Assembly (NCBI RefSeq): GCF_003019035.1
Contig: NZ_CP027447.1
Direction: 5' to 3' (one strand)
Source of the DNA: Escherichia coli
Lineage (GTDB): Bacteria; Pseudomonadota; Gammaproteobacteria; Enterobacterales; Enterobacteriaceae
DNA length: 64,000 bases
Below are positions 4,782 to 38,919 of this stretch, one piece after another. A model generated the notes under the pieces. That model was not told the origin of the DNA. It made no database searches and saw only the letters and a program-made list of their open reading frames with translations. The position numbers and the translations under genes were made by a program. How positions within the stretch are numbered: the stretch's first letter is position 1; each line of letters begins with the position of its first letter.

Positions 4782-4807
4782 CCACTACAGTTTAAGGAAA
4801 TGCAAAT

Positions 4808-5365
4808 ATGAGTGATGAGGGACTGGCGCCAGGAAAACGCTTGTCGGAAATCCGCCAGCAGCAGGGGCTTTCACAACGTCGTGCCGCCGAACTCTCCGGG
4901 CTGACTCACAGTGCTATCAGTACGATAGAACAAGATAAAGTCAGCCCTGCCATCAGTACGCTGCAAAAGCTGCTGAAGGTGTATGGTCTGTCACTCTCGG
5001 AATTCTTTTCCGAGCCGGAAAAACCTGATGAGCCGCAGGTCGTCATTAATCAGGACGACTTAATTGAGATGGGCAGTCAGGGTGTGTCAATGAAGCTGGT
5101 TCATAACGGTAACCCGAATCGCACGCTGGCGATGATCTTTGAAACTTACCAGCCGGGCACAACCACTGGGGAAAGAATTAAGCATCAGGGTGAGGAAATA
5201 GGCACTGTACTGGAAGGTGAAATTGTTCTGACCATTAATGGTCAGGATTATCATCTCGTCGCGGGGCAAAGTTATGCCATTAATACCGGCATCCCGCACA
5301 GTTTCAGTAATACGTCGGCAGGTATTTGCCGAATTATCAGCGCCCATACGCCCACCACGTTTTAA
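4808..5365 (+). CDS. puuR: HTH (XRE) + cupin transcriptional repressor of the puu genes
   Basis: 185 aa; N-terminal HTH (LSQRRAAELSGLTHSAISTIEQ), C-terminal cupin. Confidence 0.9.
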   Translation: MSDEGLAPGKRLSEIRQQQGLSQRRAAELSGLTHSAISTIEQDKVSPAISTLQKLLKVYGLSLSEFFSEPEKPDEPQVVINQDDLIEMGSQGVSMKLVHNGNPNRTLAMIFETYQPGTTTGERIKHQGEEIGTVLEGEIVLTINGQDYHLVAGQSYAINTGIPHSFSNTSAGICRIISAHTPTTF

Positions 5366-8321: not shown

Positions 8322-9587
8322 ATGAGCAACAATGAATTCCATCAGCGTCGTCTTTCTGCTACCCCACGCGGGGTTGGCGTGATGTGTAACTTCTTCGCCC
8401 AGTCGGCAGAAAACGCTACGCTGAAGGACGTAGAGGGCAACGAATACATCGATTTCGCCGCAGGCATTGCGGTGCTGAATACCGGGCATCGCCACCCTGA
8501 TCTGGTCGCGGCGGTGGAGCAGCAATTGCAACAGTTTACCCACACGGCGTATCAGATTGTGCCGTACGAAAGCTACGTCACGCTGGCGGAGAAAATTAAC
8601 GCCCTTGCCCCAGTGAGCGGGCAGGCTAAAACCGCATTCTTCACTACCGGCGCGGAAGCGGTGGAAAACGCGGTGAAAATTGCTCGCGCCCATACCGGAC
8701 GACCTGGCGTGATTGCGTTTAGCGGCGGCTTCCACGGTCGTACATATATGACCATGGCGCTGACCGGAAAAGTTGCGCCGTACAAAATCGGCTTCGGCCC
8801 GTTCCCTGGTTCGGTGTATCACGTACCTTATCCGTCAGATTTACACGGCATTTCAACACAGGACTCCCTCGACGCCATCGAACGCTTGTTTAAATCAGAC
8901 ATCGAAGCGAAGCAGGTGGCGGCGATTATTTTCGAACCGGTGCAGGGCGAGGGCGGTTTCAACGTTGCGCCAAAAGAGCTGGTTGCCGCCATTCGCCGCC
9001 TGTGCGACGAGCACGGCATTGTGATGATTGCCGATGAAGTGCAAAGCGGCTTTGCGCGTACCGGTAAACTGTTTGCCATGGATCATTACGTCGATAAGCC
9101 GGATTTAATGACGATGGCGAAAAGCCTCGCGGGCGGGATGCCGCTTTCGGGCGTGGTCGGTAACGCGAATATTATGGACGCGCCCGCGCCGGGCGGGTTG
9201 GGTGGCACCTACGCCGGGAACCCGCTGGCGGTGGCTGCCGCGCACGCGGTGCTCAATATTATCGACAAAGAATCACTCTGCGAACGCGCGAATCAACTGG
9301 GCCAGCGTCTCAAAAACACGTTGATTGATGCCAAAGAAAGCGTTCCGGCCATTGCTGCGGTACGCGGCCTGGGGTCGATGATTGCGGCAGAGTTTAACGA
9401 TCCGCAAACGGGCGAGCCGTCAGCGGCGATTGCACAGAAAATCCAGCAACGCGCGCTGGCGCAGGGGCTGCTTCTGCTGACCTGTGGCGCATACGGCAAC
9501 GTGATTCGTTTCCTGTATCCGCTGACCATCCTGGATGCGCAATTCGATGCGGCAATGAAAATTTTGCAGGATGCGCTGAAAGATTAA
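8322..9587 (+). CDS. puuE: 4-aminobutyrate aminotransferase (PLP-dependent class III)
   Basis: 421 aa; class-III aminotransferase signature incl. MTMAKSLAGG lysine region. Confidence 0.9.
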   Translation: MSNNEFHQRRLSATPRGVGVMCNFFAQSAENATLKDVEGNEYIDFAAGIAVLNTGHRHPDLVAAVEQQLQQFTHTAYQIVPYESYVTLAEKINALAPVSGQAKTAFFTTGAEAVENAVKIARAHTGRPGVIAFSGGFHGRTYMTMALTGKVAPYKIGFGPFPGSVYHVPYPSDLHGISTQDSLDAIERLFKSDIEAKQVAAIIFEPVQGEGGFNVAPKELVAAIRRLCDEHGIVMIADEVQSGFARTGKLFAMDHYVDKPDLMTMAKSLAGGMPLSGVVGNANIMDAPAPGGLGGTYAGNPLAVAAAHAVLNIIDKESLCERANQLGQRLKNTLIDAKESVPAIAAVRGLGSMIAAEFNDPQTGEPSAAIAQKIQQRALAQGLLLLTCGAYGNVIRFLYPLTILDAQFDAAMKILQDALKD

Positions 9588-21232: not shown

Positions 21233-22264
21233 TTAGCGACCCTGGTCCGGCGGTGTAATGTTATCCATATACAGCGTCTGGCTGGGGAAGGCAAAGTCCG
21301 CACCGTGTGACTGTACAATATCGATAATCTTCAAATAAACGTCTTGCTGTGCAGCAAGCCACTCAGCCCATACCGTGGTTTTGGTAAAGCAATAAACCAT
21401 AATATTTAATGACGAATCAGCAAACTGGTTGAAATAAACCAGTAAGGTTTGTCGCTGGTCGATGGCCGGGTGATTTTTCAGCATCTCACGTACGGCTTCG
21501 ACAATAACGCCCACTTTTGCCGCATCCTCATAACGTAAACCAATGGTCGTGGTAATGCGCCGGTTGGTCATTCGTCCAGGATTTTCTACGCTGATCGACG
21601 AAAACAGCGAGTTCGGTACGTACAATGGACGATTATCAAAGGTCTTAATTTTGGTAATTCGCCAGCCAATTTCCGCTACTGTACCTTCGATATTTCTGTC
21701 CGGTGAACGGATCCAGTCGCCAATACTGAAAGGACGGTCGAAATAGAGCATAATCCCGGAAAAGAAGTTACTCAGAATATCTTTACCGGCCATACCGACA
21801 GCCAGACCACCAATACCACCAAAGGTCAACAAGCCAGAAAGGCTCATGCCGAAATGTTCGCCATAAAGCAGAACAAGCACCACAATAATGGTGATTTTGA
21901 TAATGCGCGACATGATCCGCGCACTGGTGATATCGCGACCTTTTTTAATCTGCTGTTTTTCAAACTGATTAATCAGCAGAAATAGCTTAATCGTCAGAAT
22001 AACCGCAATCAGGGACGTACAGATAAAATCGATAACGCCTGGGGTGATAAATTTGAGTTTATAGTTTTCTATAACATAGTTAATGATGCTACCAACAGCA
22101 CTAATAATTATGGTGTAGATTAAAAATTGCACCGCATGGAATAAAAATCCTTTTCTTTTACGATTTCCACGGCGAAACCAAAAGCTCATCAGAATCAATG
22201 CTGCGCAGCTACCGAAAATAATGACCAGATTAAGCGCATTATTTGTAAACAGTTCAGCGATCAT
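21233..22264 (-). CDS. ynaI: small-conductance mechanosensitive channel (MscS family)
   Basis: 343 aa; N-terminal TM helices + MscS beta domain. Confidence 0.85.
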
Positions 22265-22507
22265 TGTTTTATCAGGCTCCTCCAGATAATTGTCGTCATG
22301 CCGGAAACCCCTGGCGGGGCTATTTTACCGCGACAATTCATTCAGATCATCAATAGTCAGGGAAGTAAGTAGCAACATTAGCTAACAAATCAATGCATTG
22401 ATTGTAAATCCAGCTAAGAGGTGAGGTTTTCAGAGCAGACAAGAGTGAAATGTCATGGTATTGTTACGTTTAGGTAACAAGAAATTTGTCTGCACAAGGA
22501 TTACATC

Positions 22508-22765
22508 ATGATTATGGCGAAACTGAAGTCAGCGAAAGGGAAGAAATTTCTCTTTGGTTTGTTGGCGGTTTTCATTATTGCGGCGTCGGTTGTGACTCGC
22601 GCGACCATCGGCGGCGTTATAGAACAGTACAATATTCCGCTGTCTGAGTGGACGACATCAATGTATGTGATTCAGTCATCGATGATTTTTGTTTATAGCC
22701 TGGTCTTTACTGTGTTGCTGGCAATCCCGTTGGGAATTTATTTCCTTGGCGGCGAAGAGCAGTAA
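22508..22765 (+). CDS. ynaJ: DUF2534 small inner-membrane protein
   Basis: 85 aa, two TM helices; position between ynaI and uspE. Confidence 0.75.
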   Translation: MIMAKLKSAKGKKFLFGLLAVFIIAASVVTRATIGGVIEQYNIPLSEWTTSMYVIQSSMIFVYSLVFTVLLAIPLGIYFLGGEEQ

Positions 22766-22768
22766 GTA

Positions 22769-22800
22769 AAAAATAGGCCCGATAACTCGGGCCTTGTCAG
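22769..22800. terminator. bidirectional terminator between convergent ynaJ and uspE
   Basis: GGCCCGATAACTCGGGCC hairpin flanked by A-run upstream and T-rich tract downstream. Confidence 0.6.
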
Positions 22801-22814
22801 TTATTGAAGAGTCG

Positions 22815-23765
22815 TTAATCGTCTTCTTCGTCATCCAGTTCAACGGGTGTCTGATACTGGTCAGGTTTAATGACCAGCAGGTCGCAGCGAAGATGATCAA
22901 TCACCTGTTCCGCCGTGTTGCCAAGGAATGCTGCTGAAATACCGGTGCGTCCGACCGTGCCCAGAACCACAATCCCCGCCTGTAAGTGCTCCGCCAAATC
23001 AGGAATCACCTCTTCGGGCAGACCTTTTTCTACGTGCGTCATGTTTTCATTAATGCCGAATTTCTGCCGCAGGGCTTTCATTGCCAGCAAATGTTGCCCA
23101 CGAATGGCATCGTTATAAACGCTCGGATCAAATTCCGGCAGTTCAATCGCGATATTAATTGGCGTTACCGGATAAGCGCCAACCAGATGAACTTCGGTAT
23201 GGTTGACTTGTTCCGCCAGTTCGATCGTCTCTTTGACCAGTTTTTCATTGAGCGCATTATGGTACGGCTCTTCACTGGCGAGATTCACCGCCACCAGCGC
23301 CTTACCCCCTTCCGGCCACGGCTGGTCTTTCACCATCCACACCGGGCTTGGGCATTTGCGTAACAGATGCCAGTCCGTTGGCGTAAAAATCACCGCTTCC
23401 AGACGGTCATGTTGGTGCGCCATTTTTAGCACCAAATCGTGCCCGCCGCTGATCACTTCCTGAATGATGGCTTCGAAAGGACGGTTATGCCAGACCACTT
23501 TAATTTCAATGGGAACGCCAGCATTGAGATAATATTTTGCCTGCTCGTGGATCCAGGCTGTACGCTGGCTGATGACGCCCTGACGCATAGCGGTACGTTC
23601 GTCCGGAGAGAGCAGGGTGGTCATTTCGTATGAGAAGTCATAGATCGGCAAAAAGGCTTTAATTTTGCCACCAATCCGTTGATGTAAATAAACAGCTCGC
23701 CGCAATGCTGGTTGGTCGTCCTGGTTAGGATCGATAACAACGAGCATGTTCTGATACATAGCCAT
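22815..23765 (-). CDS. uspE: tandem-domain universal stress protein E
   Basis: 316 aa from [15 protein letters not shown]; two Usp domains. Confidence 0.9.
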
Positions 23766-25389: not shown

Positions 25390-26916
25390 TTAAGACAAAC
25401 GTGGGTAAATCCCCGGACCTATCGGCAGACCGACAAGATACCACGCCAGCAACATCAGCAGCCATACCACCAAAAAGATAAGTGGATAGGGCAAAACTAA
25501 CGAATAGTAAGTACCCAGTTTCGCGTCTGGTTTGTAACGTTGCAGGAATCCAAGAAACAGTGGAACAAAAGGAGATACCGGCGCTAAAGGCAATACGGAT
25601 GAGTCGGCAATACGAAAGAGGATTTGCGCAAATGCCGGGTGAAAGCCAAGTAGCATAAACATTGGTACGAAAATGGGGGCCAGAATCGACCAGATTGCGG
25701 AACCGCTGGCGATAAACATGCATAAGAAAGAGGAAAGCAACGCCAGACCGACAAACGCCGGGATGCCGCTAAGCCCTGAACTTTCCAGTATATCGGTCAG
25801 CCCCACGGCGATGAATTTCCCCATGTTGCTCCAGTTAAACATGGCGACAAACTGGGCGAGGGGAAAAACCATCACGATAAATCCCGCCATCTCTTTCATC
25901 GGTTCAATCATTAAATGCGGTAAATCCGCCTGACGTCGAATTGTGCGGGTAGCGATGCCATAAGCCAGCGAGACCACAAAGAAAAAAAGAATGATCAGTG
26001 GCACGATACCTTTAATAAAGGGGGATGGCATCACGGTGTGATTAATCGGATCGCGCAATATCCCGTTTTCCGGGATCACCATCAGCGTAATCGCAGCAAT
26101 AAAAAGTAGCGATACGACACCTGCTATGCGTAAACCAAAACGCTGACTTTCGGTCAATGTCTGCAGTTTCTCATCGCTGTTTCCCTGCCATTGACCTAAA
26201 CGTGGCTCAATGATTTTGTCGGTTATCAGGCCGCCAACAATCGTCAGTACGACTACGGAGCTGGCCATAAAATACCAGTTATCAATTACACTGACGTGCA
26301 TTTGCGGATTGAACGCAGCCGCAGCCTCCGTGCTGATCCCCGACAGCAACACGTCGGTTGTGACAATCAGTAAATTAGCCGTAAAGCCGCAACCTACGCC
26401 TGCAATGGCGGCAAGTAAACCTGCAACTGGATGCCTGCCCACCGCCAGAAAAATTAGCGCACCCATCGGTGGCATGATCACTAACGCCGCATCGGAAGAA
26501 ATGTGGCTGAAAAAAGCAATAAACAGCACCATATAACTGGCGTAGCGGGCATTCACATGCGATGCCATTTTAACCATCAACGCTGGCAGTAAGCCGACGC
26601 GCTCCGCCAGACCGGCACCTAAAACCAGCGCCAGGATCGCGCCAAGTGGAGCAAAACCGCTAAAGTTTTTAATAACATTGGGTAAAAACCAGTGTAATCC
26701 TTCCACACTGAGCAGGTTTTTCACCACCACCGGCGTACCATCGGTCGGGTTTTTCGCACTGACGCCAAAGGCTGACAAAATTGCCGTCGTCACCATGAGT
26801 ACGATAATCAAATAGATAAAGAGCAAAAAAGGATGGGGAACCTTGTTACCAATTCTTTCGACCCAGCCATAGAGCTTCCCGGATTGGGAGGACGACGGTA
26901 TGGATGACATACTCAT
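25390..26916 (-). CDS. abgT: p-aminobenzoyl-glutamate transporter (AbgT family)
   Basis: 508 aa from [14 protein letters not shown]; multi-TM. Confidence 0.9.
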
Positions 26917-26952: not shown

Positions 26953-28398
26953 TTATTTTAAAGGTGACGGTGTCACGTTTTTCGGGATAGGGCAGTGATA
27001 CGGTTGCGTGTCCGTAACTTGCTGATGCTCTTGTTGGCATTCTTGCAATAGCCCTGAATCAATGAAGAGATTAAGTGTGGTTGCTGCCATAGTTTTCGCC
27101 GCCAGCAGCATTCCTTTATGAGCAATAGATGTTCGCCCCTGGCTAACCAGTTGCCACGTATGTAGCGGGGTACCGACGGCAAAACAGGGGCTGAAACACT
27201 GGGCAACAGGCAGTTTCCAACTGACGTCGCCGACATCAGTCGATGCCGCAAGCACGTTATCGGTGGCGGCATATGGAGCGACTTCATTCGCCAGTACCGT
27301 TTCACGATGACGTAGTGCAAAAGCCTTGCCGTTTTCGCCACCGGTTGCGGCGATATTATTCAGACTGTTTTGCCGATCGTTGGGGGTGAGCGTAGCCTGA
27401 ATTTGTTTCGCAAAAGCCAGTTCTTCGGAGTTCCATTCCGGGGTAGCAAAATGGGATAGGGCTCGGTACATGGCATTTTCTAAGGTGCGATTCGGGAGAT
27501 AACTGGAACAGGCTTTGTCGAAGCGGCATTCAACCGTGGTTTCGGTCATCAATGCCGCACCTTCGGCGATTTTGGCGACCCGATCATAAATATGCTGCAC
27601 ATCGGTCATTTCGGGGGCGCGGATAAGATAAAGCACTTCTGCCTGCGCCTGGACCTCGTTGGGCGAGATCCCGCCGCTATCTGTGATGGCATAGTGTACG
27701 CGCGCTTTTTCAATAATATGTTCGTTGAGGAAGTTGGTGCCAGTGGTCATCAACGTTACGGCATCAAGGGCGCTGCGTCCCAAATGAGGGGAATTCGCGG
27801 CATGTGCTGCGATCCCTTTAAAGCGCCATGATGCCTGAATGTTTGCCAGCGTGCGGGTATTGAACATACCGGCAAAGGCTTCCGGGTGCCATGTGAGTGC
27901 CGCATCCACATCATCAAATACCCCCTCGCGGACCATGAACGTTTTACCCGAGCCGCCTTCTTCGCCAGGACAACCATAAAAGCGCACTGTGCCGCCTTGC
28001 CCATATTGTTCCAGCCATTTCTTGACGGCTATTGCAGCGGCAAAGGCGGCAGTTCCCAGCAAATTGTGTCCGCAACCGTGACCATTTTCACCGGGCGTCG
28101 CGGATGTAGGTTGCGCGCAACCTGCTTGCTGACTTAAACCTGCCAGGGCGTCATATTCCCCCAGCAGGGCGATAACCGGTTTGCCTTGACCAAACGAAGC
28201 AATAAAGGCATTTGGGATATTGCCTACGTTGCGGGTAACGGTGAAGCCTGCAGACTCCAGCGCCGAAGCCAGATGCTCCGCTGACCAGAACTCTTCAAAA
28301 CGTGTTTCTGGATGATCCCAGATTTGATCGGCAATATCGGTATAACGTTGGCGATCGGCTTCAATCGCATCGTCGATAAAACGATAGATTTCCTGCAT
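26953..28398 (-). CDS. abgB: p-aminobenzoyl-glutamate hydrolase subunit B (M20 peptidase family)
   Basis: 481 aa; M20 metal-binding region GCPGEEGGSGK...; start ATG shares nucleotides with the upstream ORF stop (ATGA at 28398). Confidence 0.9.
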   Translation of the reverse strand: MQEIYRFIDDAIEADRQRYTDIADQIWDHPETRFEEFWSAEHLASALESAGFTVTRNVGNIPNAFIASFGQGKPVIALLGEYDALAGLSQQAGCAQPTSATPGENGHGCGHNLLGTAAFAAAIAVKKWLEQYGQGGTVRFYGCPGEEGGSGKTFMVREGVFDDVDAALTWHPEAFAGMFNTRTLANIQASWRFKGIAAHAANSPHLGRSALDAVTLMTTGTNFLNEHIIEKARVHYAITDSGGISPNEVQAQAEVLYLIRAPEMTDVQHIYDRVAKIAEGAALMTETTVECRFDKACSSYLPNRTLENAMYRALSHFATPEWNSEELAFAKQIQATLTPNDRQNSLNNIAATGGENGKAFALRHRETVLANEVAPYAATDNVLAASTDVGDVSWKLPVAQCFSPCFAVGTPLHTWQLVSQGRTSIAHKGMLLAAKTMAATTLNLFIDSGLLQECQQEHQQVTDTQPYHCPIPKNVTPSPLK

Positions 28399-29301
28399 CA
28401 GATACCTCGCGTCCAGGGAAAATTGAGCGCGGTGCGCGCCAGCGTTTCGACGGCAATAGCGAGAACCTGCTCGTCAAAATCGAATTTTTCATTGTGATGA
28501 CCTGCCGCCAGCTGTGTGCCAAATACCATGTAGGAGGCTTGCCCTTGATGTCGCTGCACGCGGGCCATCATTAATGTGGCATCTTCGGAACCCGCAGGCG
28601 CTTCAACACGTTCAATGGCCTGATTGACCCCCGCGACCTGAGCCGCCTGGATTTGCAACCATGCGACCCATTGCGGCGAAGGAGAACTGGCGGTAGCTGC
28701 ACCCATCAGACGAGTTTCAACGCCGACACCATACATGGTTGCTGCGCCCTGAATCGCTTGTTGTGCACGGTCAAAAACATATTGATTAATGACGTCGCTG
28801 GCCCCGCGTGTTTCCACTTTCAGCAACGCTGAGGCGGGAACAACATTACGACCGCTTCCTGCCTGCATAACGCCCACGTTTACTCTGGAAGCGCCTTCGC
28901 TGTGCGGGGCGATGGCTGACATCCTGCTCTTCACTGAAATCCAGCGCGTCCATATCGACACGGAAAGCCATCACCGGACCGGGGCGACCGGTATCCAGGG
29001 TAGCGACGATGCCAGTGAAACCGCCTTCAAAAGCCGCAATCCATTGTTCTAGCGCCCCCTGTTGACGAGCGCGCTCGAATTCGCGTTGTAGAGTGAATTC
29101 ATCAGGTAATCCCATCCGGCTACTTTCATTAACGACTTCGCGGCCCAGCGCCAGTGAATAACCGAGCTGGTGCAATTCTTCCGCAACAACGGTGGCAGTG
29201 CGGAATTCCACCCAGCCAGACTCTGCATAGTGGTGAAAATCACGTCGCCAGTACGATAATTTTGGGGCAAGCGAATTAATAAATTGATTCAAAGACTCCA
29301 T
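28398..29301 (-). pseudogene. abgA: abgA (M20D amidohydrolase subunit A) disrupted by internal deletion and frameshift
   Basis: N-terminal 5' part (MESLNQFINSLAPKL...DMDALDFSEEQDVSH) and C-terminal part (AIAPHSEGASRVNVGVMQAGSGRNVVP...FPWTRGI) lie in different frames; the central metal-binding segment expected for M20D enzymes is absent; total span 904 bp versus about 1.3 kb expected. Confidence 0.75.
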
Positions 29302-29476
29302 AACCTTTCCCGTCATCAGTAAAAAGTGTGACCCGGTTCACGTAGCGATAGTTTTTACTTATCACTAACTGATTTTTCACAGTTTTAACCGTTCATAAAT
29401 TACCCTGACACAATCATCTGCATTAAAGTAGATGCCAGTTTCTTTGGTCTGATAAATAACGGTTATCGGTGGCGTC

Positions 29477-30385
29477 ATGGCTTTTCAGGTAAAAATTCAT
29501 CAAATTCGGGCTTTTGTTGAAGTGGCTCGTCAGGGCAGCATTCGCGGAGCGAGCCGAATGTTGAATATGTCGCAACCGGCACTGAGTCAATCTATTCAGG
29601 AACTGGAAGAAGGGTTGGCGGCACAACTCTTTTTTCGCCGTAGTAAAGGCGTGACGTTAACTGATGCCGGTGAAAGTTTTTATCAGCACGCCAGTCTTAT
29701 TCTTGAAGAGCTGCGCGCAGCGCAAGAGGATATTCGCCAACGACAAGGGCAACTGGCAGGGCAAATTAATATCGGCATGGGGGCCAGTATTTCCCGCAGT
29801 CTGATGCCAGCTGTCATATCTCGTTTTCATCAGCAGCATCCGCAGGTAAAAGTACGCATTATGGAAGGGCAACTGGTGTCGATGATTAATGAATTGCGCC
29901 AGAGAGAACTGGATTTCACCATCAATACCTATTATCAGGGACCCTACGACCACGAATTTACTTTTGAGAAATTACTGGAAAAGCAATTCGCGATCTTTTG
30001 CCGCCCGGGACATCCCGCCATTGGTGCCCGTTCGATCAAACAGTTACTGGACTACAGCTGGACAATGCCGACGCCACACGGCAGCTACTACAAACAGTTG
30101 AGTGAATTGCTTGACGATCAGGCGCAAACGCCACAGGTCGGCGTAGTCTGCGAGACGTTCTCAGCCTGTATCAGTCTGGTGGCAAAAAGCGATTTTCTCA
30201 GCATACTACCTGAAGAAATGGGCTGCGATCCCTTGCACGGACAGGGGCTGGTGATGTTGCCGGTTAGCGAAATTTTACCGAAAGCGACCTATTATTTGAT
30301 TCAGCGGCGTGATAGTCGCCAGACACCACTGACCGCGTCATTAATCACGCAATTTCGGCGAGAATGCGGCTATCTGCAAAGTTAA
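29477..30385 (+). CDS. abgR: LysR-type transcriptional regulator of the abg operon
   Basis: 302 aa; N-terminal LysR HTH (SIRGASRMLNMSQPALSQSIQELE); divergent from abgA. Confidence 0.9.
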   Translation: MAFQVKIHQIRAFVEVARQGSIRGASRMLNMSQPALSQSIQELEEGLAAQLFFRRSKGVTLTDAGESFYQHASLILEELRAAQEDIRQRQGQLAGQINIGMGASISRSLMPAVISRFHQQHPQVKVRIMEGQLVSMINELRQRELDFTINTYYQGPYDHEFTFEKLLEKQFAIFCRPGHPAIGARSIKQLLDYSWTMPTPHGSYYKQLSELLDDQAQTPQVGVVCETFSACISLVAKSDFLSILPEEMGCDPLHGQGLVMLPVSEILPKATYYLIQRRDSRQTPLTASLITQFRRECGYLQS

Positions 30386-30393
30386 AACTGCAT

Positions 30394-30488
30394 AAAAAAA
30401 ATAGAGTCTGTCGACATCCGCCAGACTCTACAGTACACACAGCAGTGCATCCGCGTCTTAAATCCGGCATGGTCTCCTCTGCGCCGGT
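30394..30488 (-). ncRNA. mcaS: McaS (IsrA) small regulatory RNA
   Basis: minus-strand sequence ACCGGCGCAGAGGAGACAATGCCGGATTTAAGACGCGGATGCACTGCTGTGTGTACTGTAGAGTCTGGCGGATGTCGACAGACTCTATTTTTTTT recognised, ending in hairpin + U-run. Confidence 0.85.
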
Positions 30489-33865: not shown

Positions 33866-33987
33866 GCAGGTGAATGCAACGTCAAGCGATGGGCGTTGCG
33901 CTCCATATTGTCTTACTTCCTTTTTTGAATTACTGCATAGCACAATTGATTCGTACGACGCCGACTTTGATGAGTCGGCTTTTTTTT
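33866..33987 (+). ncRNA. fnrS: FnrS small regulatory RNA
   Basis: GCAGGTGAATGCAACGTCAAGCGATGGGCG...GCCGACTTTGATGAGTCGGCTTTTTTT recognised; terminal hairpin + T7 run. Confidence 0.85.
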
Positions 33988-35749: not shown

Positions 35750-36685
35750 TTATTTCACTTCAACCACATTCAGTCGTAACTCATCCAACTGATTTTCATC
35801 TTCTTCAGGCTGCCAACCCGCCGGTTGTAGAGGGATCTCTTCGCGATCAAACGCCAGATCACCCCCGTTAACCACTTCAGAACCGTGGGTAATGCCTTTG
35901 AAATCGAACAGGTTGGTATCGCACAGATGCGACGGCACCACATTCTGCATCGCGCTGAACATCGTCTCGATACGCCCCGGATAACGTTTATCCCAGTCAC
36001 GCAACATGTCAGCAATCACCTGACGTTGCAGGTTAGGCTGTGAACCGCACAGGTTGCACGGAATAATCGGGAACGCTTTTGCATCGGCAAAGCGCTGAAT
36101 ATCTTTCTCGCGGCAGTAGGCCAGCGGACGAATAACGATATGTTTGCCATCATCGCTCATCAGTTTCGGAGGCATACCTTTCATCTTGCCGCCGTAGAAC
36201 ATATTTAAGAACAGCGTTTGCAGGATATCGTCACGATGGTGACCCAACGCGATCTTCGTCGCCCCCAGTTCCGTTGCGGTGCGATAAAGGATACCGCGAC
36301 GAAGACGAGAACACAGTGAGCAAGTGGTTTTGCCCTCCGGAATCTTCTCTTTCACGATACCGTAAGTGTTCTCTTCCACAATCTTGTACTCAACGCCCAG
36401 CTTTTCAAGATACTCGGGCAGAACGTGTTCCGGGAAGCCCGGTTGTTTTTGATCGAGGTTAACAGCCACCAGCGAAAAATTGATTGGCGCGCTTTGCTGC
36501 AAATTGCGCAGAATTTCCAGCATGGTATAGCTGTCTTTACCCCCGGAGAGGCAAACCATGATGCGATCGCCTTCTTCAATCATATTGAAGTCAGCAATGG
36601 CTTCGCCCACGTTACGACGCAGACGTTTTTGTAATTTGTTCAGGTTGTATTGTTCTTTCTTACTAATTTCTTGATTTTGCGACAT
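35750..36685 (-). CDS. ttcA: tRNA 2-thiocytidine(32) synthetase (PP-loop ATPase)
   Basis: 311 aa; PP-loop SGGKDS; CxxC pairs; appears intact. Confidence 0.92.
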
Positions 36686-36826
36686 TTAAAAGCGACTCAA
36701 TTCGTTATATGGCATCAGAAGAGTATGCGTCATGCCGGAACGCCCAGCATAAGAAATCTGATATAAAAACTGTGGCGTGTATGGTACGGATTAGAGGGGA
36801 AAATGTCAGCACATTTGCGAAATGAA

Positions 36827-38554: not shown

Positions 38555-38781
38555 TGAATAAATCCTTTAGTTATTTTATTTGCCTTTTATCCCCATTTCG
38601 GGGAGTGAAAACATCCTAAAGGAGAAGTTCAGTTAGCCGATAAATATCATTTGTTACGCCTTAAGTAAAACCTTAATCAAATAATTCCTCTGAAATGATA
38701 ATAAGTCTGGTGAATGTATCGAAGATAATACATACAAAATAAAAATTATACTTTTAATTTGCTATACGTTATTCTTCGCGG

Positions 38782-38891
38782 GTTATATGCCTTTATTGTC
38801 ACAGATTTTATTTTCTGTTGGGCCATTGCATTGCCACTGATTTTCCAACATATAAAAAGACAAGCCCGAACAGTCGTCCGGGCTTTTTTTT
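38782..38891 (+). ncRNA. micC: MicC small regulatory RNA (represses ompC translation)
   Basis: GTTATATGCCTTTATTGTCACAGATTTTATTTTCTGTTGGGCCATTGCATTGCCACTGATTTTCCAACATATAAAAAGACAAGCCCGAACAGTCGTCCGGGCTTTTTTTT recognised, in the ompN-ydbK gap. Confidence 0.85.
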
Positions 38892-38919
38892 AGAATTGGA
38901 TAATCCTTATCCAGAGCAT

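Follow-up and report, generated by a model that had tools for sequence, protein, structure and literature searches.

An abgA pseudogene of Escherichia coli carrying a 407-bp deletion bounded by 8-bp direct repeats

The stretch of Escherichia coli DNA analyzed here (64,000 nucleotides; hereafter, the window) contains the abg locus, in which abgR is transcribed divergently from abgA, abgB, and abgT, with a 904-bp remnant on the minus strand at the place of the 1311-bp intact abgA gene (Table 1). Both ends of abgA are present in the remnant and lie in different frames, frames 1 and 2, as had been recognized in a preliminary description of this DNA, which also correctly placed the junction near 28900–28930 and estimated the internal deletion at about 0.4 kb; the retained 3′ part, which that description took for the C-terminal half, amounts to 39% of the AbgA protein. 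Outside the deleted interval, the remnant aligns with the intact abgA of AR_0077 (L002:4400-5710) without gaps and with 4 substitutions, and more than 4,190 genomes match the gene at 95–100% identity. Because orthology and synteny (divergent abgR, then abgA-abgB-abgT around the remnant) are both evident, but an intact catalytic open reading frame (ORF) is missing, the region at 28398–29301 is a pseudogene of the abgA family, without functional membership in it. The abgA gene of E. coli K-12 (b1338), encoding subunit A of p-aminobenzoyl-glutamate hydrolase (an amidohydrolase of the M20 family), occupies the same position in the abgR/abgA-abgB-abgT-ogt locus and has an identical promoter region; compared with it, the remnant, whose 904 bp are colinear with intact alleles of the same haplotype clade, is without nt 397–803 (aa 133–267), is frameshifted, and cannot encode the 436-aa subunit. 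The neighboring abgR, abgB, and abgT are all full length and free of internal stops, and the 175-bp intergenic region between abgR and abgA is 100% identical to that of K-12 and of all seven other alleles compared, in accordance with the earlier view that these genes and the promoter side are intact.

Table 1 Features of the abg locus in the window (positions counted from the first nucleotide of the window).
Feature	Position	Strand	Remarks
abgT transporter	25390..26916	-	Intact, 508 aa; lineage-specific A277T
abgB	26953..28398	-	Intact, 481 aa; lineage-specific G318A and V248E (V248E at window 27656)
abgA pseudogene remnant	28398..29301	-	904 bp; SCU-301 equivalent HHJ43_RS12715, "M20/M25/M40 family metallo-hydrolase, frameshifted"
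abgA 3′ fragment	28398..28905	-	nt 804-1311 (aa 269-436, ...IAPHSEGASRVNVGVMQAG...FPWTRGI); frame 2, off the start-codon frame
Premature TAA stop	28846..28848	-	Ends the 151-aa product; distance to the abgB start, 447 nt
Deletion junction	28906..28913	-	One retained ATCGCCCC copy; ungapped comparison with intact abgA
abgA 5′ fragment	28906..29301	-	nt 1-396 (aa 1-132, MESLNQ...DVSHRP); native frame 1, ATG at 29301
abgA C364T (L122F)	28938	-	SNP upstream of the junction repeat (distance 25 bp); deletion carriers only
abgA C49T (H17Y)	29253	-	SNP marking the window sub-haplotype (158 contigs versus 28 with H17)
abgR-abgA divergent promoter/intergenic region	29302..29476	.	175 bp, unchanged
abgR, LysR-type regulator	29477..30385	+	Intact, 302 aa; lineage-specific K38Q and G143R

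Alignment of the remnant with seven intact alleles shows a single gap of 407 columns, corresponding to abgA nt 397–803, which is the sole length difference from the intact alleles across the gene and has its endpoints exactly in the duplicated sequence ATCGCCCC. All intact alleles hold this 8-bp direct repeat twice, at nt 389–396 and nt 796–803, 407 bp apart, and in an ungapped comparison the remnant matches the intact AR_0077 gene over its first 396 nt and over its last 516 nt, two segments that overlap by 8 nt. The direct repeat is thus found at both ancestral endpoints and exactly one copy in the product, as in a deletion by microhomology; flanking microhomology, raised earlier as a point worth checking, is present in the form of these 8 bp. 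When extended, the two copies read GCCATCGCCCC and GCAATCGCCCC and are identical at 10/11 positions (repeat family D14). The left repeat also has an inverted 9-nt complement (I14), which lies 173 nt inside the deleted interval. At the junction, nt 396 reads directly into nt 804, with no foreign, insertion-sequence, or mobile-element DNA between them. The location of the two halves of abgA in different frames could also be explained by two separate lesions, an in-frame deletion and a distinct frameshift mutation, and the preliminary description had indeed spoken of a deletion plus a frameshift. However, because 407 mod 3 = 2, the shift in frame belongs to the same event as the deletion, and the single 407-bp gap is accompanied by no second indel in the alignment of abgA with the intact alleles, so that two lesions are hardly credible. 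The two-frame reading itself stands in this alignment to full-length abgA, where colinearity with an intact gene would have spoken against it.

The probability that 8 bp of junctional homology occur in a random deletion is about 10^-5, and the repeat therefore reflects the mechanism. The abgA gene was inactivated by one 407-bp deletion between the ATCGCCCC direct repeats, for which, as we infer from the junction, slipped-strand mispairing or short-homology illegitimate recombination would be the source. Deletions between short direct repeats, attributed to replication slippage or illegitimate recombination, are classic among the spontaneous lacI deletions of E. coli. The abgA deletion is similar to these in having perfect 8-bp repeat endpoints with one copy kept, a length of a few hundred bp, and no mobile-element scar, but it differs in that no hairpin or palindrome bringing both ATCGCCCC repeats together was identified at abgA, the inverted complement I14 being the only related feature seen. 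The repeat pair itself is unexceptional, as 15 pairs of identical 8-mers are present in intact abgA, where chance alone would give 13, along with two pairs of 9-mers; because similar 8-mer pairs abound in the gene, nothing accounts for the choice of this one. An unusually long repeat pair acting as a slippage hotspot was considered and rejected, the number of 8-mer pairs being near that expected by chance.

The distribution of the lesion was examined by megablast of window positions 28000–29700 against 5,426 complete E. coli genomes, of which 4,201 matched. Only SCU-301 (NZ_CP051751.1), a phylogroup F, ST967 strain from a rectal swab of a healthy student, matched this region in a single piece at 100%, whereas the other matches listed consist of two pieces spanning 2,108 bp versus 1,701 bp, with a 1311-bp abgA at this position; the 1311-bp gene is present in about 4,190 other complete E. 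coli genomes. The window differs from the SCU-301 record by 7 small differences over 64 kb, including small indels at 9190 and 51036, and because the two are not byte-identical, it comes from a very close relative of SCU-301 that was assembled separately. With a 40-bp junction probe, designed to be unable to seed on intact genomes, 2 of the 5,426 genomes were found to match, SCU-301 and LR-28 (NZ_AP027512.1; human faeces, Ecuador). The junction of LR-28 is identical, the flank of 27.8 kb shared with the window shows about 1% divergence, the 904-bp remnants have 7 differences, and LR-28 contains a Rac prophage remnant that is absent from the window. The exact 151-aa product of the remnant, which includes the frameshifted tail and hence fixes the junction, is recorded in NCBI, ENA, and Logan on 158 contigs with Y17 (the form in the window) and on 28 contigs with H17 (the form in LR-28), and 4 further loci (two Logan run assemblies, NCBI GCA_964301485.1, and an ENA gut metagenome scaffold) have the same 407-column gap.

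That the deletion is an artefact of sequencing or assembly, generated by collapse between the repeats, is conceivable in general terms, and the window and SCU-301 do differ by the small indels at 9190 and 51036. Nevertheless, assembly collapse is impossible on a repeat of 8 bp, and the same junction is present in SCU-301, LR-28, GCA_964301485.1, the two Logan assemblies, and the metagenome scaffold, with 186 contigs in total. Assembly collapse, the circumstance named beforehand as one that could overturn the finding, is rejected on the grounds of these several independent assemblies with identical junctions, and the probability left to an artefact is negligible. The same data require a change in the dating of the lesion. 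The preliminary description had proposed a recent, specific inactivation, but the deletion allele is neither private nor recent, as is evident from the identical junction in LR-28 within flanks of about 1% divergence and from the numbers of contigs encoding the product. As a lesion it is ordinary and already annotated, being flagged in the RefSeq record of SCU-301 and represented by a truncated product deposited many times; what is added here is its exact nature, that is, 407 bp lost between ATCGCCCC repeats in one event. The deletion allele also provides a clade marker, present on at least 186 contigs in two sub-haplotypes.

Translation from the native ATG yields a product of 151 aa, composed of 132 native residues and a 19-residue frameshifted tail, AQRRRFQSKRGRYAGRKRS. 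The 135 residues deleted (residues 133–267) include the motifs MHACGHDGH and QPAEE as well as a portion of the dimerisation domain, and the earlier supposition that the central metal-binding segment is missing is thereby substantiated. In intact AbgA, Peptidase_M20 (PF01546) covers residues 112–428 and M20_dimer (PF07687) residues 231–320, whereas in the window an intact ORF of ~436 aa with both complete domains is replaced by pieces of 151 and 187 aa. No Pfam domain was detected in the 151-aa N-terminal product, in the C-terminal fragment the match to Peptidase_M20 is confined to the C-terminal part of the profile (positions 112–205 of 206), and M20_dimer was detected in neither fragment. The alignment of full-length AbgA with a solved homologue from Klebsiella (PDB 3IO1; E = 3e-223), in which MHACGHDGH and QPAEE are conserved, covers both proteins from end to end; from this alignment, together with the presence of the 1311-bp gene in about 4,190 complete E. 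coli genomes, the intact state is ancestral. Both H146 and D147 of AbgA, which were aligned by Larimer et al. to a metal ligand of carboxypeptidase G2 (CPG2) (PMC5082436), are within the deleted span. AbgA and AbgB make up p-aminobenzoyl-glutamate hydrolase as a heterotetramer dependent on Mn2+ (PMC5082436). Because the enzyme is built from both subunits together and the central motifs of AbgA are lost, the hydrolase is presumably absent from the deletion carriers, as far as can be predicted from sequence, despite the intact abgB, abgT, abgR, and promoter. Cryptic expression of abg and a requirement for both subunits were reportedly described by Hussein in 1998 and Carter in 2007. The carrier strains would accordingly be naturally occurring abgA nulls in which abgB and abgT are intact, usable for studies of abg function.

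With regard to the origin of the deletion allele, the nucleotide at abgA nt 364 is T in every carrier examined and C in all seven intact alleles compared, including K-12. An 80-nt probe for T364 on intact sequence had no perfect counterpart among 4,197 genomes, and the only 2 records with at least 99% identity are accounted for by the 62-nt exact matches of the two carriers. Derived states common to the carriers are present also in abgB (alignment column 2742) and abgT (columns 4152, 4213, 4215, and 4239), and one carrier locus (L013) has an intermediate haplotype. The main rival to a single origin is that the same 407-bp deletion arose at least 2 times independently, in the window/SCU-301 and in LR-28, with the repeat pair as a slippage hotspot; it draws on the observations that over the 5-kb locus the window has 21 differences from the intact AR_0077 and 36 from LR-28, that the carriers differ at 7 sites in the 904-bp remnant, and that the haplotypes of the window and LR-28 differ from 78 bp onwards to the right of the junction. 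Among complete genomes, no intact sister allele matching the haplotype of either deletion allele was found, the nearest being 99.6% and 99.2% identical. Recurrence is nevertheless unlikely, considering that all carriers have the derived T364, at a distance of 25 bp from the junction, and no intact allele among the 4,197 genomes has it, that the derived sites in abgB and abgT are shared and L013 is intermediate, that a dozen other pairs in the gene are at least as long as this repeat, and that the junction is present in no other genome among the 5,426.

Hence, a deletion that arose once and was followed by recombination is, on these sequence comparisons, the very probable course of events. A single origin would require a recombination breakpoint very near the junction, because the haplotypes differ from 78 bp to its right. 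The allele very probably arose in an abg haplotype of the phylogroup F type and was then inherited and partly reshuffled by recombination, giving rise to a circulating carrier lineage that includes the ST967 strain SCU-301 and strain LR-28.

The substitutions in the four genes abgR, abgA, abgB, and abgT, polarised by the other alleles, provide a view of the state of the rest of the operon. The private changes of the window lineage are 6 nonsynonymous to 1 synonymous, compared with 17:50 pooled on the branches with intact abgA (Fisher p = 0.003; only 7 sites), and the six nonsynonymous ones are AbgR K38Q and G143R, AbgA H17Y, AbgB V248E and G318A, and AbgT A277T. These substitutions are real because they are common to independent assemblies. 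V248E is nested within the carrier clade and missing from two carrier loci, from which it follows that it occurred after the deletion; it is the only one of these changes that can be ordered relative to the deletion. In LR-28, abgT has an extra 1-bp deletion causing a frameshift, located outside any homopolymer. On account of the nonsynonymous excess (7 sites) and the LR-28 abgT frameshift, the whole operon appears to have come under relaxed constraint after the first hit, and the contrast drawn in the preliminary description between inactivation of one subunit and decay of the whole locus goes too far; this decay is still early, with three of the four genes open in the window. Lineage-specific pseudogenes in accessory operons of E. 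coli and Shigella likewise have one disabling lesion fixed in a clade, a nonsynonymous excess in the neighboring genes, and a second frameshift, corresponding here to that in abgT of LR-28, and abg differs from such decayed operons in its early stage of decay. It is a small, clean example of operon decay following a first hit. We have high confidence in the account taken as a whole, in which a repeat-bounded deletion, loss of the enzyme, one origin with recombination, and a relaxed operon are combined.

The physiological role of the abg operon has been described as unclear (PMC5082436). Among the 5,426 complete E. coli genomes, 1,225 (about 23%) have no match to the locus, and different truncated AbgA products occur in other strains, including a Shigella sonnei; the abg locus is dispensable at the species level, and the loss of abgA is likely to be nearly neutral. 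An alternative is that the loss was positively selected, or that the two fragments are still functional as a split gene, since a sizeable lineage has kept the allele while abgB, abgT, and abgR are still open and gene callers predict a 156-aa C-terminal ORF matching Peptidase_M20. A functional split gene is rejected, however, because the fragments together are without the 135 residues that include the conserved MHACGHDGH and QPAEE motifs, and hence no active site is possible, while the nonsynonymous excess and the abgT frameshift of LR-28 point to relaxation and not to maintenance, and the genomes without a locus match and the other abgA truncations fit dispensability, making this alternative as a whole very improbable. 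Export of sulfonamide and p-aminobenzoate metabolites has been ascribed to proteins of the AbgT family. In another non-neutral scenario, to which we would give only a slight chance, loss of the hydrolase with abgT kept open might have been advantageous to gut strains of a phylogroup F lineage, the allele passing between diverged backgrounds by homologous recombination; such transfer would account for the mosaic flanks that the window and LR-28 have, and, if this were true, the clade would offer a natural experiment on what the abg operon does physiologically. The lesion matters little, as a routine pseudogene shared by a whole lineage of gut E. coli and located in an accessory operon for an enzyme that salvages a folate breakdown product.

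The lesion could, in addition, have a bearing on the downstream genes. The ATG of abgB overlaps the abgA stop codon (TGATG), and abgB has its own GAGG Shine-Dalgarno sequence; expression of abgB and abgT could be reduced through lost translational coupling or through Rho-dependent polarity over the 447 untranslated nt between the premature stop and abgB.

Loss or decay of the abg genes is recurrent across the species E. coli. The abgR-abgA-abgB probe had no megablast match in 1,225 of the 5,426 complete E. coli genomes, and differing AbgA truncations of 225, 177, and 255 aa (the last in Shigella sonnei) are encoded on other complete chromosomes; therefore, these genes have been lost or have decayed repeatedly. 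In LR-28, the other complete genome carrying the identical abgA deletion junction, abgT (22013-23538 of its locus, L003) has in addition a 1-bp deletion (ACCGCAT to ACC-CAT, column 4875 of the abg locus alignment), located outside any homopolymer, and thus a second gene of the operon is disabled there beside abgA.

Within the intact abgA allele of AR_0077 (L002), CCATCGCCC, the left-hand of the two repeat copies between which the deletion occurred, lies at 4786-4794, and its perfect 9-nt inverted complement, GGGCGATGG, is found at 4968-4976, 173 nt beyond that copy and inside the interval deleted from abgA.

Several other genes in the window were compared with their counterparts in SCU-301, the near-identical complete genome sharing the abgA deletion. 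A second lineage pseudogene within the window is ynbD, interrupted by a single in-frame stop and likewise annotated in SCU-301 as an 'internal stop' pseudogene. The large ydbA-like autotransporter gene, unbroken in SCU-301 (HHJ43_RS12635, 1987 aa), is broken into two ORFs in the window by a homopolymer difference, C6 versus C7 between the window and SCU-301, which could mean either that the reading frame is truly shifted or that one or the other assembly carries a sequencing error in the homopolymer. As for puuE, the RefSeq record of SCU-301 labels it 'frameshifted', whereas the reading frame is open in the window; the two sequences differ by a 1-bp indel and one substitution (window 9190 and 9194) within a G+C-rich run.

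Features of the window, with coordinates and strand
Feature	Coordinates	Strand	Remark
puuE (4-aminobutyrate transaminase)	8322-9587	+	intact 421-aa ORF
McaS sRNA gene	30393-30488	-	directly downstream of abgR; Rfam
FnrS sRNA gene	33866-33983	+	Rfam
MicC sRNA gene	38779-38899	+	Rfam
ydbA-like large autotransporter gene, split	ORFs 48316-51162 and 51102-54278	+	difference at 51036
ynbD	61175-62467	+	single in-frame stop, codon 132 (~61568-61570)

Three known sRNA genes in the window, McaS, FnrS, and MicC, exceed the Rfam gathering thresholds. The Rac prophage is absent from the uspF-ttcA interval of both the window (about 36100-36800) and SCU-301; between uspF and ttcA in LR-28 lies a degraded Rac remnant (L003 1-12200), comprising intR, xisR, trkG, hokD, pinR, and others.
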